DNA from: an uncultured Bacilli bacterium
GTDB taxonomy: Bacteria > Bacillota_I > Bacilli_A > RF39 > UBA660
Direction: 5' to 3'
Length of the DNA stretch: 64,000 nucleotides
NCBI GenBank assembly: GCA_934190785.1
Contig: CAKPTA010000001.1
Coordinates: 111,540-175,539, forward strand
Of this stretch, positions 16,558-53,733 are shown piece after piece. The stretch's first letter is position 1. The number at the start of each line of letters is the position of its first letter. The notes beneath the pieces are model-generated. The model was not told the origin of the DNA, made no database searches, and saw nothing but the letters and a program-made list of their open reading frames with translations. A program made the translations under genes and the position numbers.

Positions 16558-19182
16558 ATGATTCAAGATTTTAAAAATAAAACAAAAGAAGAACGCCTTA
16601 TGCTATTATCAAACAGTGAATTTATAAAAAGTATTTTAGCGATGCCACCAGCTTCTCTTAATGCTTTTGGACTTTCCCTTAGTAATGATGAAATGCAAAA
16701 GTTTGTTCCATATGCATCTGATTTTACAAAAGTAGATAGAATTCGTTTTAATGCTTTTTTTAAAACATTTGGTTCAAATATTCAGAAACAATTTTTTGAT
16801 AATGAAGAATTTTTAACGTTTTACATGGAAGCAAAAAAAACACAGCGAGGATATCATCCTTTTATGTCACTTCCTGAGGATGTAAAATTATACGTTTTAG
16901 AGAAACATGAATATATTATGAGTCATATAAATAATCTTGAATATATACATAATTTAAATAAAGAAAATGAAAGATTATATCTTGATTCACTTGATACATA
17001 TATAAAAAATAATTGTAGTGATGAGCTTAAAAACATTCCTATCACTGAGCTTAGATATGTATATAGCTTGTACCATGATAAAGATTATTCTAAAGTTAAA
17101 GCTTGGTGTAAACGGGAATTTCAAATTGAAGATGAAGAATTATTTGAAAGCTTATTTAATTTAATTATTCATAATCATGCTAAACTTACTTATGCCCTAA
17201 CACTAAAAACAGAGTTAGAATGGTTATTATATTTAAAATTTGATATTTATATACCATCATTAGATGAAAAAAGTGAAAATCTAGGTATTAAACTGGATAA
17301 AGAATTATTAAAAAAAGTTAGAGTACATGATGTTAACCGTATATATAGAGAATTAGCTAATACTAATGAATTAAATGATTATGAAAAGCTTATTTTATCA
17401 CTTAATGCGTATAGTGTTTTGGGGCTTGATAATAGTTTAAAACTAGTCCGTGGTAAGTTTTCAAATATAACAGATCGTGCTCTTGATAGATCAGCAAGAT
17501 TAGATTTTACTGATAGTAGAAGAGAATATAGAATAAAACATCAAGATGAGTTTTACGGTTATCAATTATTTGATAAAGTAAAAAGGTGTTTTAAAGATGA
17601 AGAATATACATATCTAGAAAATATTTTTAAAATAAATCATAATGAAATAGATGAGTATATAAATGAAATATATTCCATGTGGAAGAAGAATGAAAAACAT
17701 GAAGAGTGGGATACCTTTTTAGCCCATATAATAAAAACAACAATTACTAGACGTGAGAAAAATTTAGAAAAAGAACACATTGAAAAATTTAAGAAAAATT
17801 ATCTAGCAAAAAGAACACATGATGTAACAATTAAAGATGTATTTATGTGTTTTCGTGATATTGATTTAAGTAATATTTCTTACAATGATAAGGGTAAACC
17901 TATAATTAATCCAGTTTTAGTTACATTTTTACTGGGAAATGAAAAAGTTGATAATGATTGTTTAATTAGACTTGTTTTAAATGGACTAGCTTTTGGACTT
18001 AATTATACGCTTGCAAATACAATTAATCATTTTAAAGCTTTAAATGATATAATTGAAAAATCTAAAGGTAAAATGAATATTAATTCTCTTTTAGATGTAA
18101 TTGATGCTAGTAAAGTATTACTTTATGAATTAGAGCCTGATGAGCAAGATATTTCTCTTGCTACAATAGCTAAAATTCAGTCTTCAAGGCAGCATTGCAA
18201 TGAACCTGTTGATGTAATTATAAGAAAAGTAAAAAAGCTTCATCATGAGAGAAAAAGTAAAGTAGCAGCTACAATTCCATTTGTTCGTGGAATAAGTGCT
18301 AATGGTATTTCTTATGGTATATTAGAGTATGATGATGAAAAAGTACTTACGGCTGGAATAGATACTGGAAGTTGTTTTAGAGTAGGCGCTAGAGGTGAAG
18401 ATTTTCTACGCTATTGTGCATTAGATAAAAATGGCGCTATATTATCCCTTACAACTAAAGAAGGTAATTATTACATTTGTCCACTTATTAGAAATGGGAA
18501 CAGTGTTTATGGAAATGGCATAGATCCAGAACCAAAAACAGAAAAAGAGACAGAGGAACTATTAACAACAATTAAAGAATGTTTCTCTAAAATGTGCCTT
18601 CGAAGTGATAAAAAAGAACCAATTGAAATAGGTGTTATCACTGATTTACATAATAAAAATTATTTTGAACATGAAACTTATGAAAAATTTAATTCTAAGG
18701 AAGCTTTTATGCTAGGAGAATACTGTTATACTGATTACTATAAATCAACAATTCAAAATTATATAATTTATAAAGAAAATAATGCTGAAACTAAATATTA
18801 CAATCCTAACATTGTTTATAGTGAGCCACGCCAAAAACCATATACATATATTTCATCAGTAGAGCAAGATAAAGAACGAATTAACCTTTTAATAAATTCA
18901 ATTGGTTACACAATATATAAAGAGGAATTAATTAAAGAAAAAAGTAGAAAAAAAGCTTTTAAAACATATAAACCATTTAATGTTGATGATTTTAAATCAA
19001 TTAATGGTGCTAAAGATTGGTTTGTAGGAATAAAAGACAACTTAACAGTTGAAAGTAGATGCTTACCATATGATAAAAGAGCAAAAATTGAAATGTATAA
19101 CGCTTTAGCTAAAATAGAAGAACAACTAAATTTTTCAGAAACTATGGAGGAAAATCTATCATGCGAGAAGAAAAAGGTATAA
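16558..19182 (+). CDS. large hypothetical protein (874 aa)
   Basis: Long uninterrupted ORF with TTGACA-17-TATATT promoter upstream. No recognised domain. Confidence 0.4.
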   Translation: MIQDFKNKTKEERLMLLSNSEFIKSILAMPPASLNAFGLSLSNDEMQKFVPYASDFTKVDRIRFNAFFKTFGSNIQKQFFDNEEFLTFYMEAKKTQRGYHPFMSLPEDVKLYVLEKHEYIMSHINNLEYIHNLNKENERLYLDSLDTYIKNNCSDELKNIPITELRYVYSLYHDKDYSKVKAWCKREFQIEDEELFESLFNLIIHNHAKLTYALTLKTELEWLLYLKFDIYIPSLDEKSENLGIKLDKELLKKVRVHDVNRIYRELANTNELNDYEKLILSLNAYSVLGLDNSLKLVRGKFSNITDRALDRSARLDFTDSRREYRIKHQDEFYGYQLFDKVKRCFKDEEYTYLENIFKINHNEIDEYINEIYSMWKKNEKHEEWDTFLAHIIKTTITRREKNLEKEHIEKFKKNYLAKRTHDVTIKDVFMCFRDIDLSNISYNDKGKPIINPVLVTFLLGNEKVDNDCLIRLVLNGLAFGLNYTLANTINHFKALNDIIEKSKGKMNINSLLDVIDASKVLLYELEPDEQDISLATIAKIQSSRQHCNEPVDVIIRKVKKLHHERKSKVAATIPFVRGISANGISYGILEYDDEKVLTAGIDTGSCFRVGARGEDFLRYCALDKNGAILSLTTKEGNYYICPLIRNGNSVYGNGIDPEPKTEKETEELLTTIKECFSKMCLRSDKKEPIEIGVITDLHNKNYFEHETYEKFNSKEAFMLGEYCYTDYYKSTIQNYIIYKENNAETKYYNPNIVYSEPRQKPYTYISSVEQDKERINLLINSIGYTIYKEELIKEKSRKKAFKTYKPFNVDDFKSINGAKDWFVGIKDNLTVESRCLPYDKRAKIEMYNALAKIEEQLNFSETMEENLSCEKKKV

Positions 19183-19373: not shown

Positions 19374-19423
19374 TTTTATTATATAAGAATTCTAAGTACA
19401 CCCACGCTCCACTTGACAAGTGG

Positions 19424-19454
19424 GGGGGGGGTGTATGCTAAAATACACTTTAGA
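19424..19454 (+). promoter_or_regulatory. putative sigma-A promoter (TTGACA ... TAAAAT) with a 19-nt spacer containing a G9 homopolymer
   Basis: -35 TTGACA at 19424-19429 lies inside the perfect palindrome ccacttg-a-caagtgg. -10 TAAAAT at 19449-19454. G run at 19433-19441. Confidence 0.4.
19433..19441. repeat. poly-G homopolymeric tract (9 G)
   Basis: Read directly. This is the only such G/C run in the window. Confidence 0.9.
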
Positions 19455-19472
19455 ATAGAGGTGTATTTTTTT

Positions 19473-21065
19473 ATGAAAAAGAAAGGTTTTACTTTAATAG
19501 AATTACTTGCCGTAATAGTTATTTTAGCTGTTGTTGCACTAATATCAATGCCACTAGTATTAAATACAATAGATAAGGCAAAGAAAGGTGCAGCTATAGA
19601 ATCAGCTAATGGTGTTATATCAGCAGCTGAGAATAAATACATGAGTAGTATGATAACAGGAGATAAAGATACAAGATTTGATTTTCCAAGTGATACCAAG
19701 TTATCAATCAAAGGAACAAGACCAACAAGTGGAACAGTTGTCGTTGATAAGAAAGGTAATATAAGTGCTACTTTAGAAATAAATGGATACTGCATAGAAA
19801 AGACGTTTCTTGAAACATCACCAAAAGTAATAGAAAAAAGTCCATGTACAATTAGTGATAGTGAGCTTTTTGAAGCAGAAAAATATAAAGATTCTGTTTT
19901 AAATGGAGCAGACCCTGTTATAAATAGTGACTTAGTAGCAGTAACAATAGAAAATGATGGAACAGTAAAAAAAGCCGATATCAAAAAAGAATGGTATAAC
20001 TATAAAAATAAAGTATGGGCCAATGCGATTATTCTAAAAGATAAAACAATAAACTATGAAGATAATGAGGTAATACCAGAAAGTAATATAGAATCATATT
20101 TTGTATGGATACCAAGATATAAATATAGAATCTTTAATGAAGGAAATTATACAAACTATATAGAAGGAAAACCAGAAAGTTCAAGCAAACCAGATACAAT
20201 AGAAATAGTATTTGAAAATAAAGATACAAGTGTATCAAATGGTTCAAAGGTAGGAGAATACTTAACACATCCAGCCTTTACAAGTTTTGAAAGTAATGGA
20301 TTTTGGATGGGAAAATTTGAAACAACTGGAAGTACAAGTAATATAACAGTAAAACCAAATAATACATCACTTCGAAATATAAATGTAAAATCAATGTTTG
20401 AGTTAGCTTACAATTATAATAGAAATCTAGATAGTCATATGCTAAAGAATACTGAGTGGGGAGCAGCTACATACTTATCATATTCAGTATATGGAATAAA
20501 TGATGAAGTAAATATAAATAATAATAGTAACTTTGTAACAGGATATAGTGCGGTTTCTGGAACAGATCAAAGTAGTTATCCTGGAACATATGGAACTGAT
20601 ACAAGTGTAACACTTGCATATAATACAGAAACAGGGTATAAGGCAAGTACAACTGGAAATATAAGTGGAGTATATGATATGAGTGGAGGAGCATGGGAAT
20701 ACATGGCTTCATATATGAAAGATACATATAAAGATAGCGGTTTTGATGCAGCCTCAATATCTTCATATAATTCAAAATACTTTGATATTTATCCAAGTGA
20801 TAGTGGTTGGACAAGTTATAATAAACGAATTTTAGGAGATGCGACAGGAGAGATAGGGCCATTCTATTATTACAAAGATAAAGATGGAAATAACAGAATA
20901 CATAACTCTTGGTTTGGGGACTACTCTTATTTCGTTGACGCTTCTTACCCTTGGTTCGTACGCGGAGGCCGTTACGCCAACGGTGTTCTTGCAGGTCAGT
21001 CGTTTTTTGATAGGTCTACTGGTGTTGCGAGCAGTTGGAATGGCTTCCGCCTTGCATTAATATAA
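19473..21065 (+). CDS. type IV prepilin-like N-terminus fused to a formylglycine-generating-enzyme (FGE/SUMF1) family domain
   Basis: MKKKG|FTLIELLAVIVILAVVALI is the prepilin cleavage/methylation motif (Gly-1, Phe+1, Glu+5). The C-terminal domain carries FGE hallmarks (...TEWGAATY..., GGAWEYM, RGGRYANG...SWNGFRLAL). I prefer ATG 19473 to the upstream track start, which reads through the G tract. Confidence 0.6.
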   Translation: MKKKGFTLIELLAVIVILAVVALISMPLVLNTIDKAKKGAAIESANGVISAAENKYMSSMITGDKDTRFDFPSDTKLSIKGTRPTSGTVVVDKKGNISATLEINGYCIEKTFLETSPKVIEKSPCTISDSELFEAEKYKDSVLNGADPVINSDLVAVTIENDGTVKKADIKKEWYNYKNKVWANAIILKDKTINYEDNEVIPESNIESYFVWIPRYKYRIFNEGNYTNYIEGKPESSSKPDTIEIVFENKDTSVSNGSKVGEYLTHPAFTSFESNGFWMGKFETTGSTSNITVKPNNTSLRNINVKSMFELAYNYNRNLDSHMLKNTEWGAATYLSYSVYGINDEVNINNNSNFVTGYSAVSGTDQSSYPGTYGTDTSVTLAYNTETGYKASTTGNISGVYDMSGGAWEYMASYMKDTYKDSGFDAASISSYNSKYFDIYPSDSGWTSYNKRILGDATGEIGPFYYYKDKDGNNRIHNSWFGDYSYFVDASYPWFVRGGRYANGVLAGQSFFDRSTGVASSWNGFRLALI

Positions 21066-21080
21066 AAATAATTATTTTTA

Positions 21081-21101
21081 AAGACAATTTTGTCTTTTTT
21101 T
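21081..21101 (+). terminator. rho-independent terminator after the pilin-FGE gene
   Basis: aagacaa-tt-ttgtctt followed by T7. Confidence 0.5.
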
Positions 21102-21125
21102 GTTATACTATTAGCAGTGATATTT

Positions 21126-22079
21126 ATGAATGAATTAGAATTAATAAATGATGTTGTTAGCAAGTATATATCCGATTGTAATATAGAAGATATGAACGAT
21201 TTTAGATTTTTAACGTCTTTAATTGATATTTTTGATAGTAATTATAAGGGAAATAAAGTTAGAGATTTTAAGAAACGTGTTTCTTTGAAACGTTGTCTTA
21301 AATATGCATATGATTTTTTTATGTCTATTAATTCAGACTATGCGGCTTACTTAGAAAAACGTTTAGATGAAGGTGCTTTTATCTTTGAAACTGGTAAAGA
21401 AAAGTATGACAATAATTTATCTATTTCTAGTATTATTGATGGTAAAGCAAAGATGATAGTATATCTTCAAAATACTATTAATGATGCTTATGCAATTACG
21501 CATGAGCTTATTCATGATATGACTATAGAAAGAGAAGGAGTAGATAATTCTGCTACAAGATCTGTATTTTGTGAAATGTTTTCCTTATTGGGAGAAGAAC
21601 TTTTAAGAGATTATTTTGAAAGGACTACTAGGCCAAGTGAGTATGAACTTGAGAGTAAATATAATTTATATGTAATCTCTTGGAAAAATAAAATTATTTT
21701 ATATGAGCTTCATTTAATTGAAACTTATCTTAATAATGGGTATATTCATGCTACTGATTTAGCTTATGGTGATGATGATCTTGTATGCGGTATTGCACTT
21801 GATGATATTTTAGATAATAAGGATTTAAGTTTTCCTTTTGAAGAAAGGTATGTAATAGGTTATTTATTTGCGTGTTATATGCTTGATAGAGTTGATAGTA
21901 ATAGTAAAAATATTAATGAATTTTTTGAACTTAATGATATTATTAATAAATTTAAATTTTTAAATTTGACAAATTATTTAGAACTTGATGTAGTGGATGC
22001 TAGAACATTTGATTTAACAGATGAATCTTATAAAAAGATAGAAAATGCTTTTGTTAAAAGGTTAAAGAAAGTTAGGTAA
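21126..22079 (+). CDS. HExxH...E putative gluzincin metallopeptidase, paralog 1
   Basis: HELIH, then a Glu about 20 aa downstream (FCEMFS). I prefer ATG 21126 because the track TTG start lies inside the terminator. Confidence 0.45.
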   Translation: MNELELINDVVSKYISDCNIEDMNDFRFLTSLIDIFDSNYKGNKVRDFKKRVSLKRCLKYAYDFFMSINSDYAAYLEKRLDEGAFIFETGKEKYDNNLSISSIIDGKAKMIVYLQNTINDAYAITHELIHDMTIEREGVDNSATRSVFCEMFSLLGEELLRDYFERTTRPSEYELESKYNLYVISWKNKIILYELHLIETYLNNGYIHATDLAYGDDDLVCGIALDDILDNKDLSFPFEERYVIGYLFACYMLDRVDSNSKNINEFFELNDIINKFKFLNLTNYLELDVVDARTFDLTDESYKKIENAFVKRLKKVR

Positions 22080-22107
22080 ATGATTGTAAAATAAAGTGGG
22101 GGTAATA

Positions 22108-23151
22108 ATGGTGACAGTAGAAGAGTATAAAAAATTAAATGATTATTTAAATGGCTGTTTTATTAAATTAGAAAGAAATGACTGGTTTTTATTAGATAAT
22201 ATAAGTTTTTTTGATAAACTTAGTAAAGCTTTTATTGAAACTGTTAATGAATATGATTTAGGCATGAATACTGAAGCTTGTAATATTAGTTTTAATGATA
22301 TTTACGTTTTAGCTCGTGAAATTCTTGAAGATATTTCACCATCATATTTGCCTATATTTGATACTTTAATAAAAAGCGGCGAGCTTGATTTTAGTTATGA
22401 GAATGAATATAAAACTTCTTGTGTTACATATGATCATTTAAATGATGTTTCTCTAATTAATATTAATTTAAGTTTTACACATCAAGATGTTGCTACTTTA
22501 ATTCATGAGTTTATGCATAAAATTAATTATGGCAATTCTTTTAATTGGTATATATTTACAGAATTTATCTCTATTTATTTTGAGGAATATGCGAAACGAT
22601 ATTTACTTAATAAAGGCATTTTTAAAGATAGTTTGAATTTAAATCTTAGAATATCTAATACATTAATATGTGCAAGTGATATTGTTAGTTATTCTCGTAT
22701 TATTTTTGCATATGAAAAAATGGGTAAAATTGATATGAATTCATATGAATTTTTAGATGAATATTTTACTCCTACAGATAAAGATGATTTTGAAGATGAA
22801 TGTAAAGTATTTTTACAAAAAATTCAAAAAATTGAGAATAGTTATAAAATGTCTATTTTGTATGAAAAAGATTTTAATGAAAATGAATTATATGATAAAA
22901 TTATTAGAAGTTTATCTAAGGGGTATCGTTATATTTTAGGAACTGCCGTAGCTTATTATGCATTAGAACATTGTAATAAAGAAGATATTGTATATTTATC
23001 TTGGCATATTAATGATGAAGAGTTTAGAAATATTTCTTTTTTTGAATGTTTAAATAAAATTGGAATAAGTAGTGATATTATAACGATTAATGATTGTACT
23101 GATGCGGTAAAAAAGGTACTTGAAAATAATTCACATAAAAAAGATAGGTGA
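22108..23151 (+). CDS. HExxH...E putative gluzincin metallopeptidase, paralog 2
   Basis: HEFMH ... FTEFIS. Same size and layout as paralog 1. Ends 5 nt before miaA. Confidence 0.45.
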   Translation: MVTVEEYKKLNDYLNGCFIKLERNDWFLLDNISFFDKLSKAFIETVNEYDLGMNTEACNISFNDIYVLAREILEDISPSYLPIFDTLIKSGELDFSYENEYKTSCVTYDHLNDVSLININLSFTHQDVATLIHEFMHKINYGNSFNWYIFTEFISIYFEEYAKRYLLNKGIFKDSLNLNLRISNTLICASDIVSYSRIIFAYEKMGKIDMNSYEFLDEYFTPTDKDDFEDECKVFLQKIQKIENSYKMSILYEKDFNENELYDKIIRSLSKGYRYILGTAVAYYALEHCNKEDIVYLSWHINDEEFRNISFFECLNKIGISSDIITINDCTDAVKKVLENNSHKKDR

Positions 23152-32780: not shown

Positions 32781-33067
32781 AAGAAGAATTAGTAAAATTT
32801 AAAGTATTTGATGAAGATGGTAAGGAAGTAGAGTGCGAAGTATTATTTACTTTTGATTCTGATGAAACAAATAAAAGTTATATGGTGTATACTGATAATA
32901 CTGTTGATGAAGATGGTAATACACGTGTTTATGCATCAATTTACAATCCAGAAGCAGATGAAGTTAAATTGGAACCAATTGAGACAGATAAAGAATGGAA
33001 AATTATCGAAACAATTTTAAATGAAATACAAGATTCTGTTAAAGATGGAGAGGAAAGCGAGCAATAA
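32777..33067 (+). CDS. DUF1292 (UPF0473) family protein
   Basis: Acidic ~95-aa protein between ruvX and mltG, as for YrzB in B. subtilis. Confidence 0.65.
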   Translation: MKEELVKFKVFDEDGKEVECEVLFTFDSDETNKSYMVYTDNTVDEDGNTRVYASIYNPEADEVKLEPIETDKEWKIIETILNEIQDSVKDGEESEQ

Positions 33068-34154
33068 TAGCTCGTCTTTGTATATGAAGAAGTATAATTC
33101 ACTTTTGAAAATTATTGTTACATTTATAATTAGTATTTTAATGTTTTTATATATTCTATATCACTTTTTATTATCTAGTCCTTCTAGTAATAAGAATATT
33201 ATTTCTTTTGAAGTAAAGTCAGGTGATAGTCTTCTTACTATTGCAGATGAATTAAAAGACTCAGGACTTATTAGGTCTAAGCTTGCTTATAAGTTATACA
33301 TTAAATTTCATAAAGTAAGTGGCCTAGAAGCTGGTGTTTATGAACTTACGCCTAATATGGATGTTGTTGCTTTAACTAAAACTTTATCGGGAAAAAGTAA
33401 GAATACAAATAATATAAAAATAACATTTAAAGAAGGCATAAATATGCGAGCTGTTGCAGCTTTAATTGAAAAGAATACTAATTATAGTGAAGAAGATGTA
33501 TATGATCTTTTATCTGATGATGAATTTCTTAATGAATTAATTGAAAAGTATTGGTTTTTAACAGATGAAATAAAAAATAAAAATATATATTATTCTCTTG
33601 AAGGATATTTATTTCCAAATACATATGAGTTTAAAAAAGATGCTACTTTAGAAGAAATGTTTATTACGCTTTTAAACGAAACAGATAAAGTATTAAGTAA
33701 ATATAAAAGCGATATTAATAAGAGTTCTTATTCTATCCATGAACTTTTAACACTAGCTTCTATAGTTGAGCTTGAAGCAAGTAGAGATGTTGATAGAGCG
33801 TCAGTAGCAGGTGTATTTTATAATCGTTTAGAGAATAATTGGTCACTAGGAAGTGATGTTACAACTTATTATGCGGCTCGTGTTGATATGAGTGAACGTG
33901 ATTTATATGTATCTGAATTAAATGATTATAATGCTTATAACACAAGAAGTAGTAAAATGGCTGGTAAACTTCCTGTTGGACCAATTTGTAATCCTAGTGA
34001 AGAATCAATTCTAGCAGCGATTAATCCAGTGAGTCATAATTACTTTTATTTTGTTGCTGATAAAAATAAAAAGACTTATTTTTCACGTACTTCAAGTGAG
34101 CATGCAAAAACAATAAGTGAGTTAAAGGAAGCGGGATTATGGTACGAATACTAG
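33021..34154 (+). CDS. mltG: endolytic murein transglycosylase MltG (YceG-like)
   Basis: N-terminal TM and YceG-like domain. The true start may be ATG ~33087 (MKKYNSLLK). Confidence 0.8.
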   Translation: MKYKILLKMERKASNNSSSLYMKKYNSLLKIIVTFIISILMFLYILYHFLLSSPSSNKNIISFEVKSGDSLLTIADELKDSGLIRSKLAYKLYIKFHKVSGLEAGVYELTPNMDVVALTKTLSGKSKNTNNIKITFKEGINMRAVAALIEKNTNYSEEDVYDLLSDDEFLNELIEKYWFLTDEIKNKNIYYSLEGYLFPNTYEFKKDATLEEMFITLLNETDKVLSKYKSDINKSSYSIHELLTLASIVELEASRDVDRASVAGVFYNRLENNWSLGSDVTTYYAARVDMSERDLYVSELNDYNAYNTRSSKMAGKLPVGPICNPSEESILAAINPVSHNYFYFVADKNKKTYFSRTSSEHAKTISELKEAGLWYEY

Positions 34155-46410: not shown

Positions 46411-46536
46411 TTGACAAATATATAAAAATGTGGTAACATTTTATATTGTGTAGAGCCTCACTCTACAACCACACAGAAAAGGTTATAAACGTAAGTGCCT
46501 TAATGGTGAGTCTTAGAAATTTATAAGGAGGTTAAT
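46411..46536 (+). promoter_or_regulatory. sigma-A promoter (TTGACA-17-TAACAT) plus structured rplU (L21) leader
   Basis: Consensus -35/-10 spacing. A ~90-nt leader with hairpin tgtagag-cctca-ctctaca is in the position of the Firmicute L21 leader. Confidence 0.4.
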
Positions 46537-53230: not shown

Positions 53231-53400
53231 AATTTATTTTACCTTTCTTAAATTTATTATTAAAATTAAAGTGTTATTTATTTTTTTAGTTTGAGTAAGT
53301 ATCGATGAATCTTCAAAATGGTAAAAGTAGTAGAGGAACTCATTCAAAATATTTGGGTAATAAAAAACTCAAACTTTTATAGTTCGAGTTTTATATCAAT

Positions 53401-53487
53401 TTGGTGCGAGTGAAGGGACTTGAACCCCCACGCCGTAAGGCACTAGATCCTAAGTCTAGCGCGTCTGCCAATTTCGCCACACTCGCA
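53401..53487 (-). tRNA. tRNA-Leu (anticodon TAG)
   Basis: Reverse complement GCGAGTGTGGCGAAATTGGCAGACGC...CTTAGGA...long variable arm...GGTTCAAGTCCC...CCA. Confidence 0.85.
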
Positions 53488-53496
53488 AATTTTAAA

Positions 53497-53573
53497 TGGT
53501 GGACCCAGAAGGACTCGAACCTGCGACCGCCCGGTTATGAGCCGGATGCTCTAACCAACTGAGCTATGGGTCC
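53497..53573 (-). tRNA. tRNA with CAT anticodon, most likely tRNA-Ile2 (lysidine) rather than Met
   Basis: Reverse complement GGACCCATAGCTCAGTTGGTTAGAGC...CTCATAA...GGTTCGAGTCC...CCA, close to Bacillus tRNA-Ile(CAU). Confidence 0.8.
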
Positions 53574-53733
53574 GCAACCACTGCTATTACATAATAGCAT
53601 ATTTTTTTTGATAGTGCAATAAAAATTTTAAAAAATTTATAAAGTTTACAAATAAATTTATTTGTATAGTATATTATATTCTGATTTTTTTAAATTATTT
53701 TATCTTTTTACTAAAATATGATAGAATGAATGT

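Follow-up and report, generated by a model that had tools for sequence, protein, structure and literature searches.

The last 150 nucleotides (nt) of a pilin-like gene from an uncultured Bacilli bacterium are very probably (we put it at about 0.9) the variable region (VR) of a diversity-generating retroelement (DGR) target gene. The gene lies at 19473-21065 of a 64,000-nt stretch of contig CAKPTA010000001.1, hereafter the window, and the VR at 20906-21055. The mechanism is a known one; the gene is a new target of it. Because neither a template repeat (TR) nor a reverse transcriptase (RT) is found in the window, the gene would be a remote target served in trans and not a DGR element in itself. 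The prototype for TR, VR, the initiation of mutagenic homing (IMH) segment, Avd and the RT (bRT) is Bordetella phage BPP-1, whose Mtd is a phage tail-fibre protein. Below, L-numbers denote loci from related assemblies and P-numbers related proteins. The parts of the gene, all on the forward strand, are as follows:

19473-21065, probable DGR target gene of 530 amino acids, with a pilin-like N-terminus and a C-terminal variable-protein domain (open reading frame (ORF), profile matches, AF2 model)
19476-19547, prepilin-type (class III) signal plus N-methylation motif KKGFTLIELLAVIVIL, in which G precedes F(+1) and E stands at +5 (Pfam and NCBIfam matches at residues 2-25; translation)
19494-19832, predicted pilin-like module made of an N-terminal helix (residues 8-62) and a small beta-sheet (residues 68-120) (AF2 secondary structure)
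19860-21062, C-terminal domain with the predicted C-type-lectin/FGE-like fold of DGR variable proteins (Foldseek match to TaqVP; sub-threshold PF03781)
20906-21055, probable VR, a GC-rich and A-poor segment (gapless alignment to the TR at 11760-11909 of L003)
20920-21041, span from the first to the last template adenine, holding the mutable codons, mostly AAC/AAT in the template (A positions of the aligned TR)
21042-21055, 3' end of the VR, free of A and rich in G+C, GGCTTCCGCCTTGC, a candidate for an IMH-like initiation segment (TR counterpart GGTTTCCGCCTCGC; analogy with BPP-1)

The segment stands out by its composition. A preliminary description of this DNA had reported that the last ~150 nt of the gene are about half G+C and use codons (CGC, GGC, GCC, TCG) that hardly occur elsewhere in the window, and both observations hold. 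In 150-nt sliding windows across the whole 64 kb, mean GC is 0.275 (standard deviation 0.052), and a peak of 0.50-0.52 spans approximately 20826-21098, so that about 50% stands against a mean of 27.5%. The rise is real and beyond chance fluctuation. Only a tRNA pair (53333-53633) reaches a higher peak, and the sliding-window check that had been proposed, a search for comparable spikes at other places, returned none: no other coding sequence of the 64 kb has a spike like that of the tail, which makes the segment special. The four codons are rare synonymous choices in the window (CGC 3%, GCC 3.5%, TCG 2.5%, GGC 7%), as are TAC (8%), TTC (9%) and GAC (9%). G+C at third codon positions (GC3) is 0.45 in the last 49 codons against a background of 0.135 +/- 0.05, and the maximum among 15,376 windows of the same 49-codon size in the other genes of the 64 kb is 0.39. 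The N-terminus of a YceG/MltG-like gene (33021-33170) has the second-highest GC3 (0.39) of any such window. Third-position A falls from ~0.5 elsewhere to ~0.1 in the tail, while at codon positions 1 and 2 the GC goes up from ~0.40 to 0.53-0.60. The 156 nt at 20905-21060 hold 55 T, 43 G, 35 C and 23 A, with an AT skew down to -0.39 in this A-depleted tail.

The nature of the segment is revealed by comparison with a template. The closest TR available comes from a related assembly (L003) and is not this genome's cognate TR; the gene beside it encodes a protein with 91% identity to that of the window. From this TR the window VR differs at 15 of the 32 template adenines and at 10 of 118 other positions (Fisher p 3e-6), the non-A mismatch rate (8.5%) being equal to the divergence of the gene bodies (7.9%). 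Where VRs are compared with TRs from their own locus or assembly, they show the concentration on adenines expected of a DGR target: 23 of 25 mismatches fall on TR adenines in L030, 19 of 23 in L003, 10 of 14 in L077, and 14 of 15 in the cross-contig pair described below. The mismatched template adenines are mostly in AAC/AAT codons and are changed to G, C and T. In the TR codon lists, A is likewise concentrated in AAC/AAT and nearly absent from third positions.

The same pattern separates alleles at the window's own locus. We fetched the locus from ten other samples by way of MiaA, 2 kb downstream, and nine of them keep the 3' tail of the gene. Over 900 nt of downstream flank, eight of the nine have 0-26 mismatches to the window, and the flank of L093 has an indel. 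Three VR alleles occur (coordinates L090 3751-3900; L097 1-144): allele A in the window, L094 and L095 (also in L085 and P0125), allele B in six samples and allele C in L097. They differ at 22 of the 32 template-A positions and at 16 of 112 other positions (pairwise p <= 5e-6), so that hypervariability among strains, as in known DGR targets, is centred on the VR and on template-A positions. L090, L091 and L096 have 0-1 differences from the window in the flank, yet 29 differences within the 150-nt VR; such near-identical flanks beside divergent VRs imply that the VR has been rewritten within the time over which the strains diverged.

Templates and complete cassettes are found in related genomes. 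A BLASTN search of all tails against all loci detected tail-like copies 160-220 nt past the stop codon in L003, L030, L032, L046, L059 and L077, and a degenerate copy in L066. Only in L030, L046 and L059 do an RT and accessory genes stand beside the TR in the same genome; there the TR is followed by a MutS_I-domain protein (the MutS-like protein, MSL), Avd and RT. The Avd proteins match NF033474 with 80.1 bits, a score equal to the cutoff, as well as PF22296 (bAvd), and the RT (~345 amino acids) matches RVT_1 and contains IGNYTSQ and YMDD motifs. In complete cassettes such as L059 the VR/TR homology stops just past the A-free block, which in the window (21042-21055) shares 12 of 14 positions with the end of the TR; by analogy, this block is a candidate IMH-like segment. 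The TRs are 45-51% GC, with 1-6 third-position A per ~50 codons, and the adjoining MSL, Avd and RT genes are 20-25% GC. The template is a small island of nucleotide-level selection inside a host-like cassette, and no foreign relic. In assembly CAKPSO, a VR on contig 5 (L066) and the TR of the full cassette on contig 4 (L046) have 15 differences, 14 of them at template A, which by sequence comparison shows the DGR acting in trans within one assembly. In CAKOTA, the core of the L058 VR departs from the L032 TR at A positions only.

Remnants of such elements were also seen: a degenerate TR behind the VR templated from another contig (L066 11435-11626), the C-terminal remnant of an RT (L032 11714-11977), MSL only (L077 2039-2710) and an Avd fragment (L037 1320-1463). 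At L003 (11760-12197) the TR has intact AAC codons and is followed by an 89-residue DUF6273-like ORF fragment and then by ClpB. Two proposed connections were rejected: a 'LALTN'-type paralogue as neighbour of a cassette, since L100 has no TR or RT there, and a tie between the L003 and L001 loci through YfhO, since their neighbouring genes differ.

The protein has the architecture of a DGR target joined to a pilin-like N-terminus. Matches to N_methyl PF07963 (30.9 bits, cutoff 21.2) and TIGR02532 (30.5 bits, cutoff 16.3) are both above cutoff, and the prepilin motif KKG/FTLIELLAVIVIL (also written KKG/FTLIELL) is followed by a hydrophobic helix (residues 8-62 in the AF2 model), so that the G/FxxxE cleavage and methylation motif and the helix of type IV pilins and pseudopilins are both present. 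An AF2 model built from 87 homologues (mean pLDDT, the predicted local distance difference test, 91) begins with a long helix, which is followed by a small sheet and a large C-terminal domain. Searched against the PDB with Foldseek, it gave significant matches only to chains of 5vf4, the Thermus aquaticus variable protein TaqVP (E 1.4e-9, probability 1.0); the VR thus sits at the C-terminus of a variable protein with a C-type-lectin fold, as is usual for DGR targets. This match came from the C-terminal domain and none was obtained for the pilin part alone; judging from the model, residues 8-120 may form a pilin fold, and the protein may be displayed on a pilus. No pilus assembly genes were found among the window ORFs scanned, which are a part of all window ORFs. 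Other N_methyl proteins adjoin paralogues in L002 and L003. The preliminary description had placed the most conserved block of an FGE domain in the tail. The match to FGE-sulfatase PF03781 (20.1 bits, under the 23.3 cutoff) covers only residues 312-420, upstream of the tail, and does not make the protein a family member; the resemblance to FGE is, on the modelled structure, one of fold, as in other DGR variable proteins.

Nor is the tail conserved. The family comprises more than 7,900 homologues, nearly all from metagenome-assembled genomes of uncultured gut 'Bacilli/Tenericutes', and among close relatives no part of the protein varies more than the tail, in which conserved scaffold residues are interspersed. 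In homologues that are 83-94% identical, ~480 residues are almost invariant and the last ~50 differ at discrete positions between the fixed residues of a scaffold, SW..D...F...PW..RGG.Y..G....F...G.....FR.AL. Among five close copies compared as DNA, 91 of the 156 columns of the tail vary, against ~13% of body columns, and the invariant tail columns are A-poor. Across 100 family genes, drawn from 83 loci, mean GC in the final 150 nt is 0.46 (body 0.31) and mean A content 0.20 (body 0.41). Tail GC falls into two apparent groups, in that 58 tails have at least 0.45 and 25 have less than 0.40, the latter being relaxed towards host composition. The family is multi-copy within genomes. The window protein is identical to P0144, and the 270,974-bp contig that encodes P0144 also carries a paralogue, P0153; exact look-ups of the window protein and of P0153 gave no record. 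Assembly CATNCE has eight paralogues over several contigs whose tails have a common A-poor scaffold of 102 invariant columns (13% A) and 43 variable columns, 21 of them with three or more bases; in body segments of the same genes, three or more bases are found in 13-14% of variable columns and the invariant columns are ~40% A.

Taken at the level of mechanism, these genes suggest the following course of events. A TR of ~150 nt elsewhere in the genome would be a near-copy of the tail in which scaffold codons avoid A and variable codons are mostly AAC/AAT; it would match 20906-21055 at scaffold positions and carry A at the variable ones, for example TTCGTTGACGCTTCTAACCCTTGGTTCGAACGCGGAGGCAATTAC. 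By the logic of DGRs, scaffold codons avoid A because adenines are what the element mutates. The TR would be transcribed, and the DGR RT, together with Avd and the small MutS-like protein, would copy the RNA into cDNA with misincorporation opposite template adenines. The cDNA would then take the place of the VR, and the tail would take on the A-poor, C/G-rich codons of the template, plus G+C wherever an A had become G or C. The product would be a type-IV-pilin-like subunit bearing a ligand-binding domain of C-type-lectin/FGE fold whose binding surface is encoded by the VR, and the window copy would be one of several paralogous targets per genome that are served in trans.

We infer that a cognate TR and RT exist elsewhere in this genome and that the DGR is presently active on the window VR. 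Several results weigh against this. A mismatch search, a repeat finder and short-word BLASTN found no second copy of the tail in the window, and six-frame motif searches and tblastn found no RT, Avd or MSL in the 64 kb. TR, RT, Avd and MSL are absent as well from the 10 kb beyond either window end in sister strains, whose contigs carry only housekeeping genes there. Around L003, the locus with the closest TR, neither RT nor Avd nor MSL lies within +/-10 kb; no RT was seen at L001-L004 or L100, and no intact cassette in the window's species. TR patterns specific to the clade gave 0 matches in reference genomes, JGI metagenomes and viral contigs; the pattern used for the reference-genome scan was too strict, as positions 'invariant' among five sequences are not invariant. 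A family-level TR pattern also gave 0 matches in viral contigs, and the lack of viral matches is consistent with a cellular rather than a phage-borne element. At the locus itself, the alleles differ at 9-10% of non-A positions (14 of the 16 being transitions) beside near-identical flanks, where a single faithful template predicts otherwise, and the window allele recurs unchanged in L094, L095, L085 and P0125.

Part of this would be expected if a DGR had written the tail in the past and had since been inactivated or lost, the GC content being an unameliorated relic. We consider such a fossil VR possible, at clearly less than even odds. It would agree with the lack of an RT or TR in the window and of an intact element in its closest clade, with the decayed cassettes that are common in the family (the RT remnant, the lone MSL, the Avd fragment and the degenerate TR mentioned above), and with the relaxation of about a quarter of family tails to host composition. 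Compared with the L003 TR, the window allele also has 8 non-A changes that are private to it, of which 7 are GC-to-AT transitions, and it is present in at least 4 other assemblies. Against it, the three alleles occur among strains with 0-1 nt differences in the 900-nt flank, pointing to very recent rewriting, and the codon usage of the tail remains remote from that of the host (GC 0.51 against an expected 0.39). The sequence inspected amounts to only ~84 kb of a genome of more than 270 kb.

The non-A differences bear on a second alternative, in which tails are shuffled without any RT by gene conversion among paralogues or silent cassettes. This is how antigenic variation works at Neisseria pilE/pilS, where RecA-dependent conversion from silent copies involves no RT, no template adenine bias and no C-type lectin domain; the likeness lies in a type IV pilin with a hypervariable C-terminal part, cassette-like replacement and multiple related copies in the genome. 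Gene bodies are indeed mosaic between strains and paralogues, with clustered differences: the L085 gene (607-2039) and the window (19473-20905) have 79 clustered nt differences in the body, 1 in the VR and 0 in the downstream flank. Allele B has, just upstream of the VR, a body variant typical of other paralogues, and a single template fails to explain the non-A allele differences. The upstream neighbour changes from strain to strain as well, being an 874-residue ORF in the window, SufBD/aminotransferase in L090 (1-2317) and a 175-residue ORF in L085. In eight of ten assemblies the contig ends inside the multi-copy gene body, most of them keeping the tail, and the mosaic bodies and changing neighbours suggest either recombination between paralogues or chimeric assembly. 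As the sole cause, however, gene conversion is improbable. Template-A positions differ 5-6 times more often than others, three or more bases occur in half of the variable columns, the family has RT cassettes as well as TRs whose AAC codons are intact, and A-specific novelty would not arise from conversion alone. The non-A allele differences and mosaic bodies instead suggest that paralogue recombination acts alongside retrohoming, and gene conversion is thus probably an addition to the DGR. It is conceivable, and we propose it tentatively, that the system has two tiers, in which one template, possibly apart from the RT, rewrites the tails of many pilin-borne lectin-like adhesins and paralogue recombination then reshuffles bodies, tails and flanks. 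If true, this would explain the non-adenine allele differences and give a number of targets beyond that of any described DGR.

The remaining alternatives concern the origin of the GC content. We calculated the GC expected from the encoded residues and host codon usage, which for the gene body (0.300) agrees with that observed (0.302) and for the tail is 0.393, against 0.513 observed in the VR; when the 32 template-A positions are reset to A, the VR has a GC of 0.467. The rise can be divided into about +9 points from a scaffold rich in Gly, Arg, Ala and Trp, about +7 from the A-avoiding synonymous codons of the template and about +5 from A-to-N mutagenesis. Third positions in the template-derived tail also prefer C over T, and the logic of DGRs covers the avoidance of A only. 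The preliminary description had read the break as a mosaic gene with a 3' cassette acquired horizontally or by recombination from a donor of higher GC. The mosaic itself stands, in that the 3' ~150 nt have a separate history and a donor richer in GC than the body; the notion of a 3' cassette that is replaced was right in spirit, and horizontal transfer from a donor organism of higher GC is not supported. In favour of a foreign source are the sharp boundary near 20905 and the codons nearly unused elsewhere in the window, yet a single transfer into the window gene is excluded by the presence of the GC-up, A-down tail in 100 genes of the family, which come from dozens of genomes of low GC. The differences between copies are located at adenines, paralogue tails within one genome have one scaffold in common, and the actual donor would be an intragenomic TR amid cassette genes of 20-25% GC, all of which leaves a higher-GC organism with a very slight chance. 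Equally slight is the chance that constraint on a conserved Gly/Arg/Ala/Trp-rich motif alone forces GC-rich codons, since, although positions 1 and 2 are enriched and residues raise the expected GC from 0.30 to 0.39, they cover ~9 of 21 points in a segment that is hypervariable, the rise of GC3 from 0.13 to 0.45 is synonymous, and the relaxed paralogue tail of L084 encodes the same scaffold in host-typical codons at a GC of 0.367 (expected 0.371), so that the protein does not need GC-rich codons.

Two further features, also on the forward strand, flank the coding sequence:

19390-19472, conserved putative leader or promoter region common to paralogues at different loci (near-identical in the window, L001, L002, L003 and L084)
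21080-21101, hairpin AAAGACA-ATTT-TGTCTTT (21080-21097) followed by a T run (fold z = -3.05 against shuffles)

The ~85-nt leader holds TTGACA (19413-19418) and TAAAAT (19439-19444) at a spacing of 20 nt, a run of ten G between them (19422-19431), the palindrome CCACTTG-A-CAAGTGG and a GTGTAT..ATACAC hairpin, and 19390-19472 has no Rfam match. Phase variation through the G10 tract was considered and rejected, as its length is identical in five assemblies (the window, L001, L002, L003 and L084). The hairpin behind the gene is most likely an ordinary terminator; as a DGR target signal it is not specific, such hairpins being equally frequent behind template-like tails (28 of 58) and relaxed tails (13 of 25). 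The window is ordinary core chromosome, with UvrC, PNPase, MiaA, ProRS, Obg, CysRS, MiaB and MutL. The 874-residue ORF upstream of the gene (16558-19182) matches no Pfam family, and neither do two tandem ORFs directly downstream (21117-22079 and 22096-23151), which carry HELIH and HEFMH (HExxH) motifs. An Rfam L21 ribosomal-protein leader at 46457-46523 (44.6 bits, cutoff 36) is an ordinary feature.

Among described systems, the cassettes of L030, L046 and L059 most resemble the 'Architecture D' DGRs with MSL and Avd, such as that of Legionella pneumophila Corby (PMC5758913), with which they have in common the order target-TR-MSL-Avd-RT, a small MutS-domain-I protein, an Avd four-helix bundle, an RT with IGxxxSQ and YxDD, adenine-specific mutagenesis and a VR at the C-terminus of a protein with a C-type-lectin fold. 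They differ from the Legionella DGR in that the hosts are uncultured low-GC gut Bacilli and the targets carry a prepilin signal and have many copies per genome; in the window's clade, the cassette was not seen. In TaqVP and in Mtd of BPP-1, too, the fold is of the C-type-lectin type and its C-terminal face carries the VR; sequence identity between TaqVP and the window protein is ~14-15%, and the pilin module is extra here. TvpA of Treponema denticola is a lipoprotein, whereas the targets described here have pilin-type N-termini. The Treponema denticola DGR is similarly a cellular, non-phage element acting in trans on non-adjacent targets with FGE-type C-type-lectin domains; its accessory gene is HRDC instead of MSL, and its seven non-adjacent targets are the reported maximum (Wu et al. 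2018, PMC5758913). Copy number appears to be at least as high here, since the part of one assembly (CATNCE) that was fetched contains 8 template-like tails. In gut Bacteroides, DGRs are described as diversifying type V pilus adhesins (preprint 10.1101/2024.11.15.621889); the pili there are of type V and the hosts Bacteroidota, whereas the signal here is type IV/pseudopilin-like and the hosts are Bacilli. In a survey of 2024, VR proteins with 'G-type pilin' domains are given only as scarce (PMC11661182). Pilin-anchored targets are barely mentioned in the literature (PMC11661182), and here their number per genome is high.

In an AT-rich genome, an island of ~150 nt with raised GC and depleted A at the 3' end of a gene for a lectin-fold protein marks a DGR VR even where no template or RT is near. 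A large metagenomic survey of DGRs states that remote targets are undetectable by its approach (PMC8144416), and this compositional signature could help to recover those that surveys have missed. Since the target genes are multi-copy, assemblies of these genomes break at them. For the uncultured gut Bacilli, the finding suggests that hypervariable, pilin-anchored binding proteins form a large family with many copies, at least 8 in some genomes, and that this family presumably functions in adhesion.

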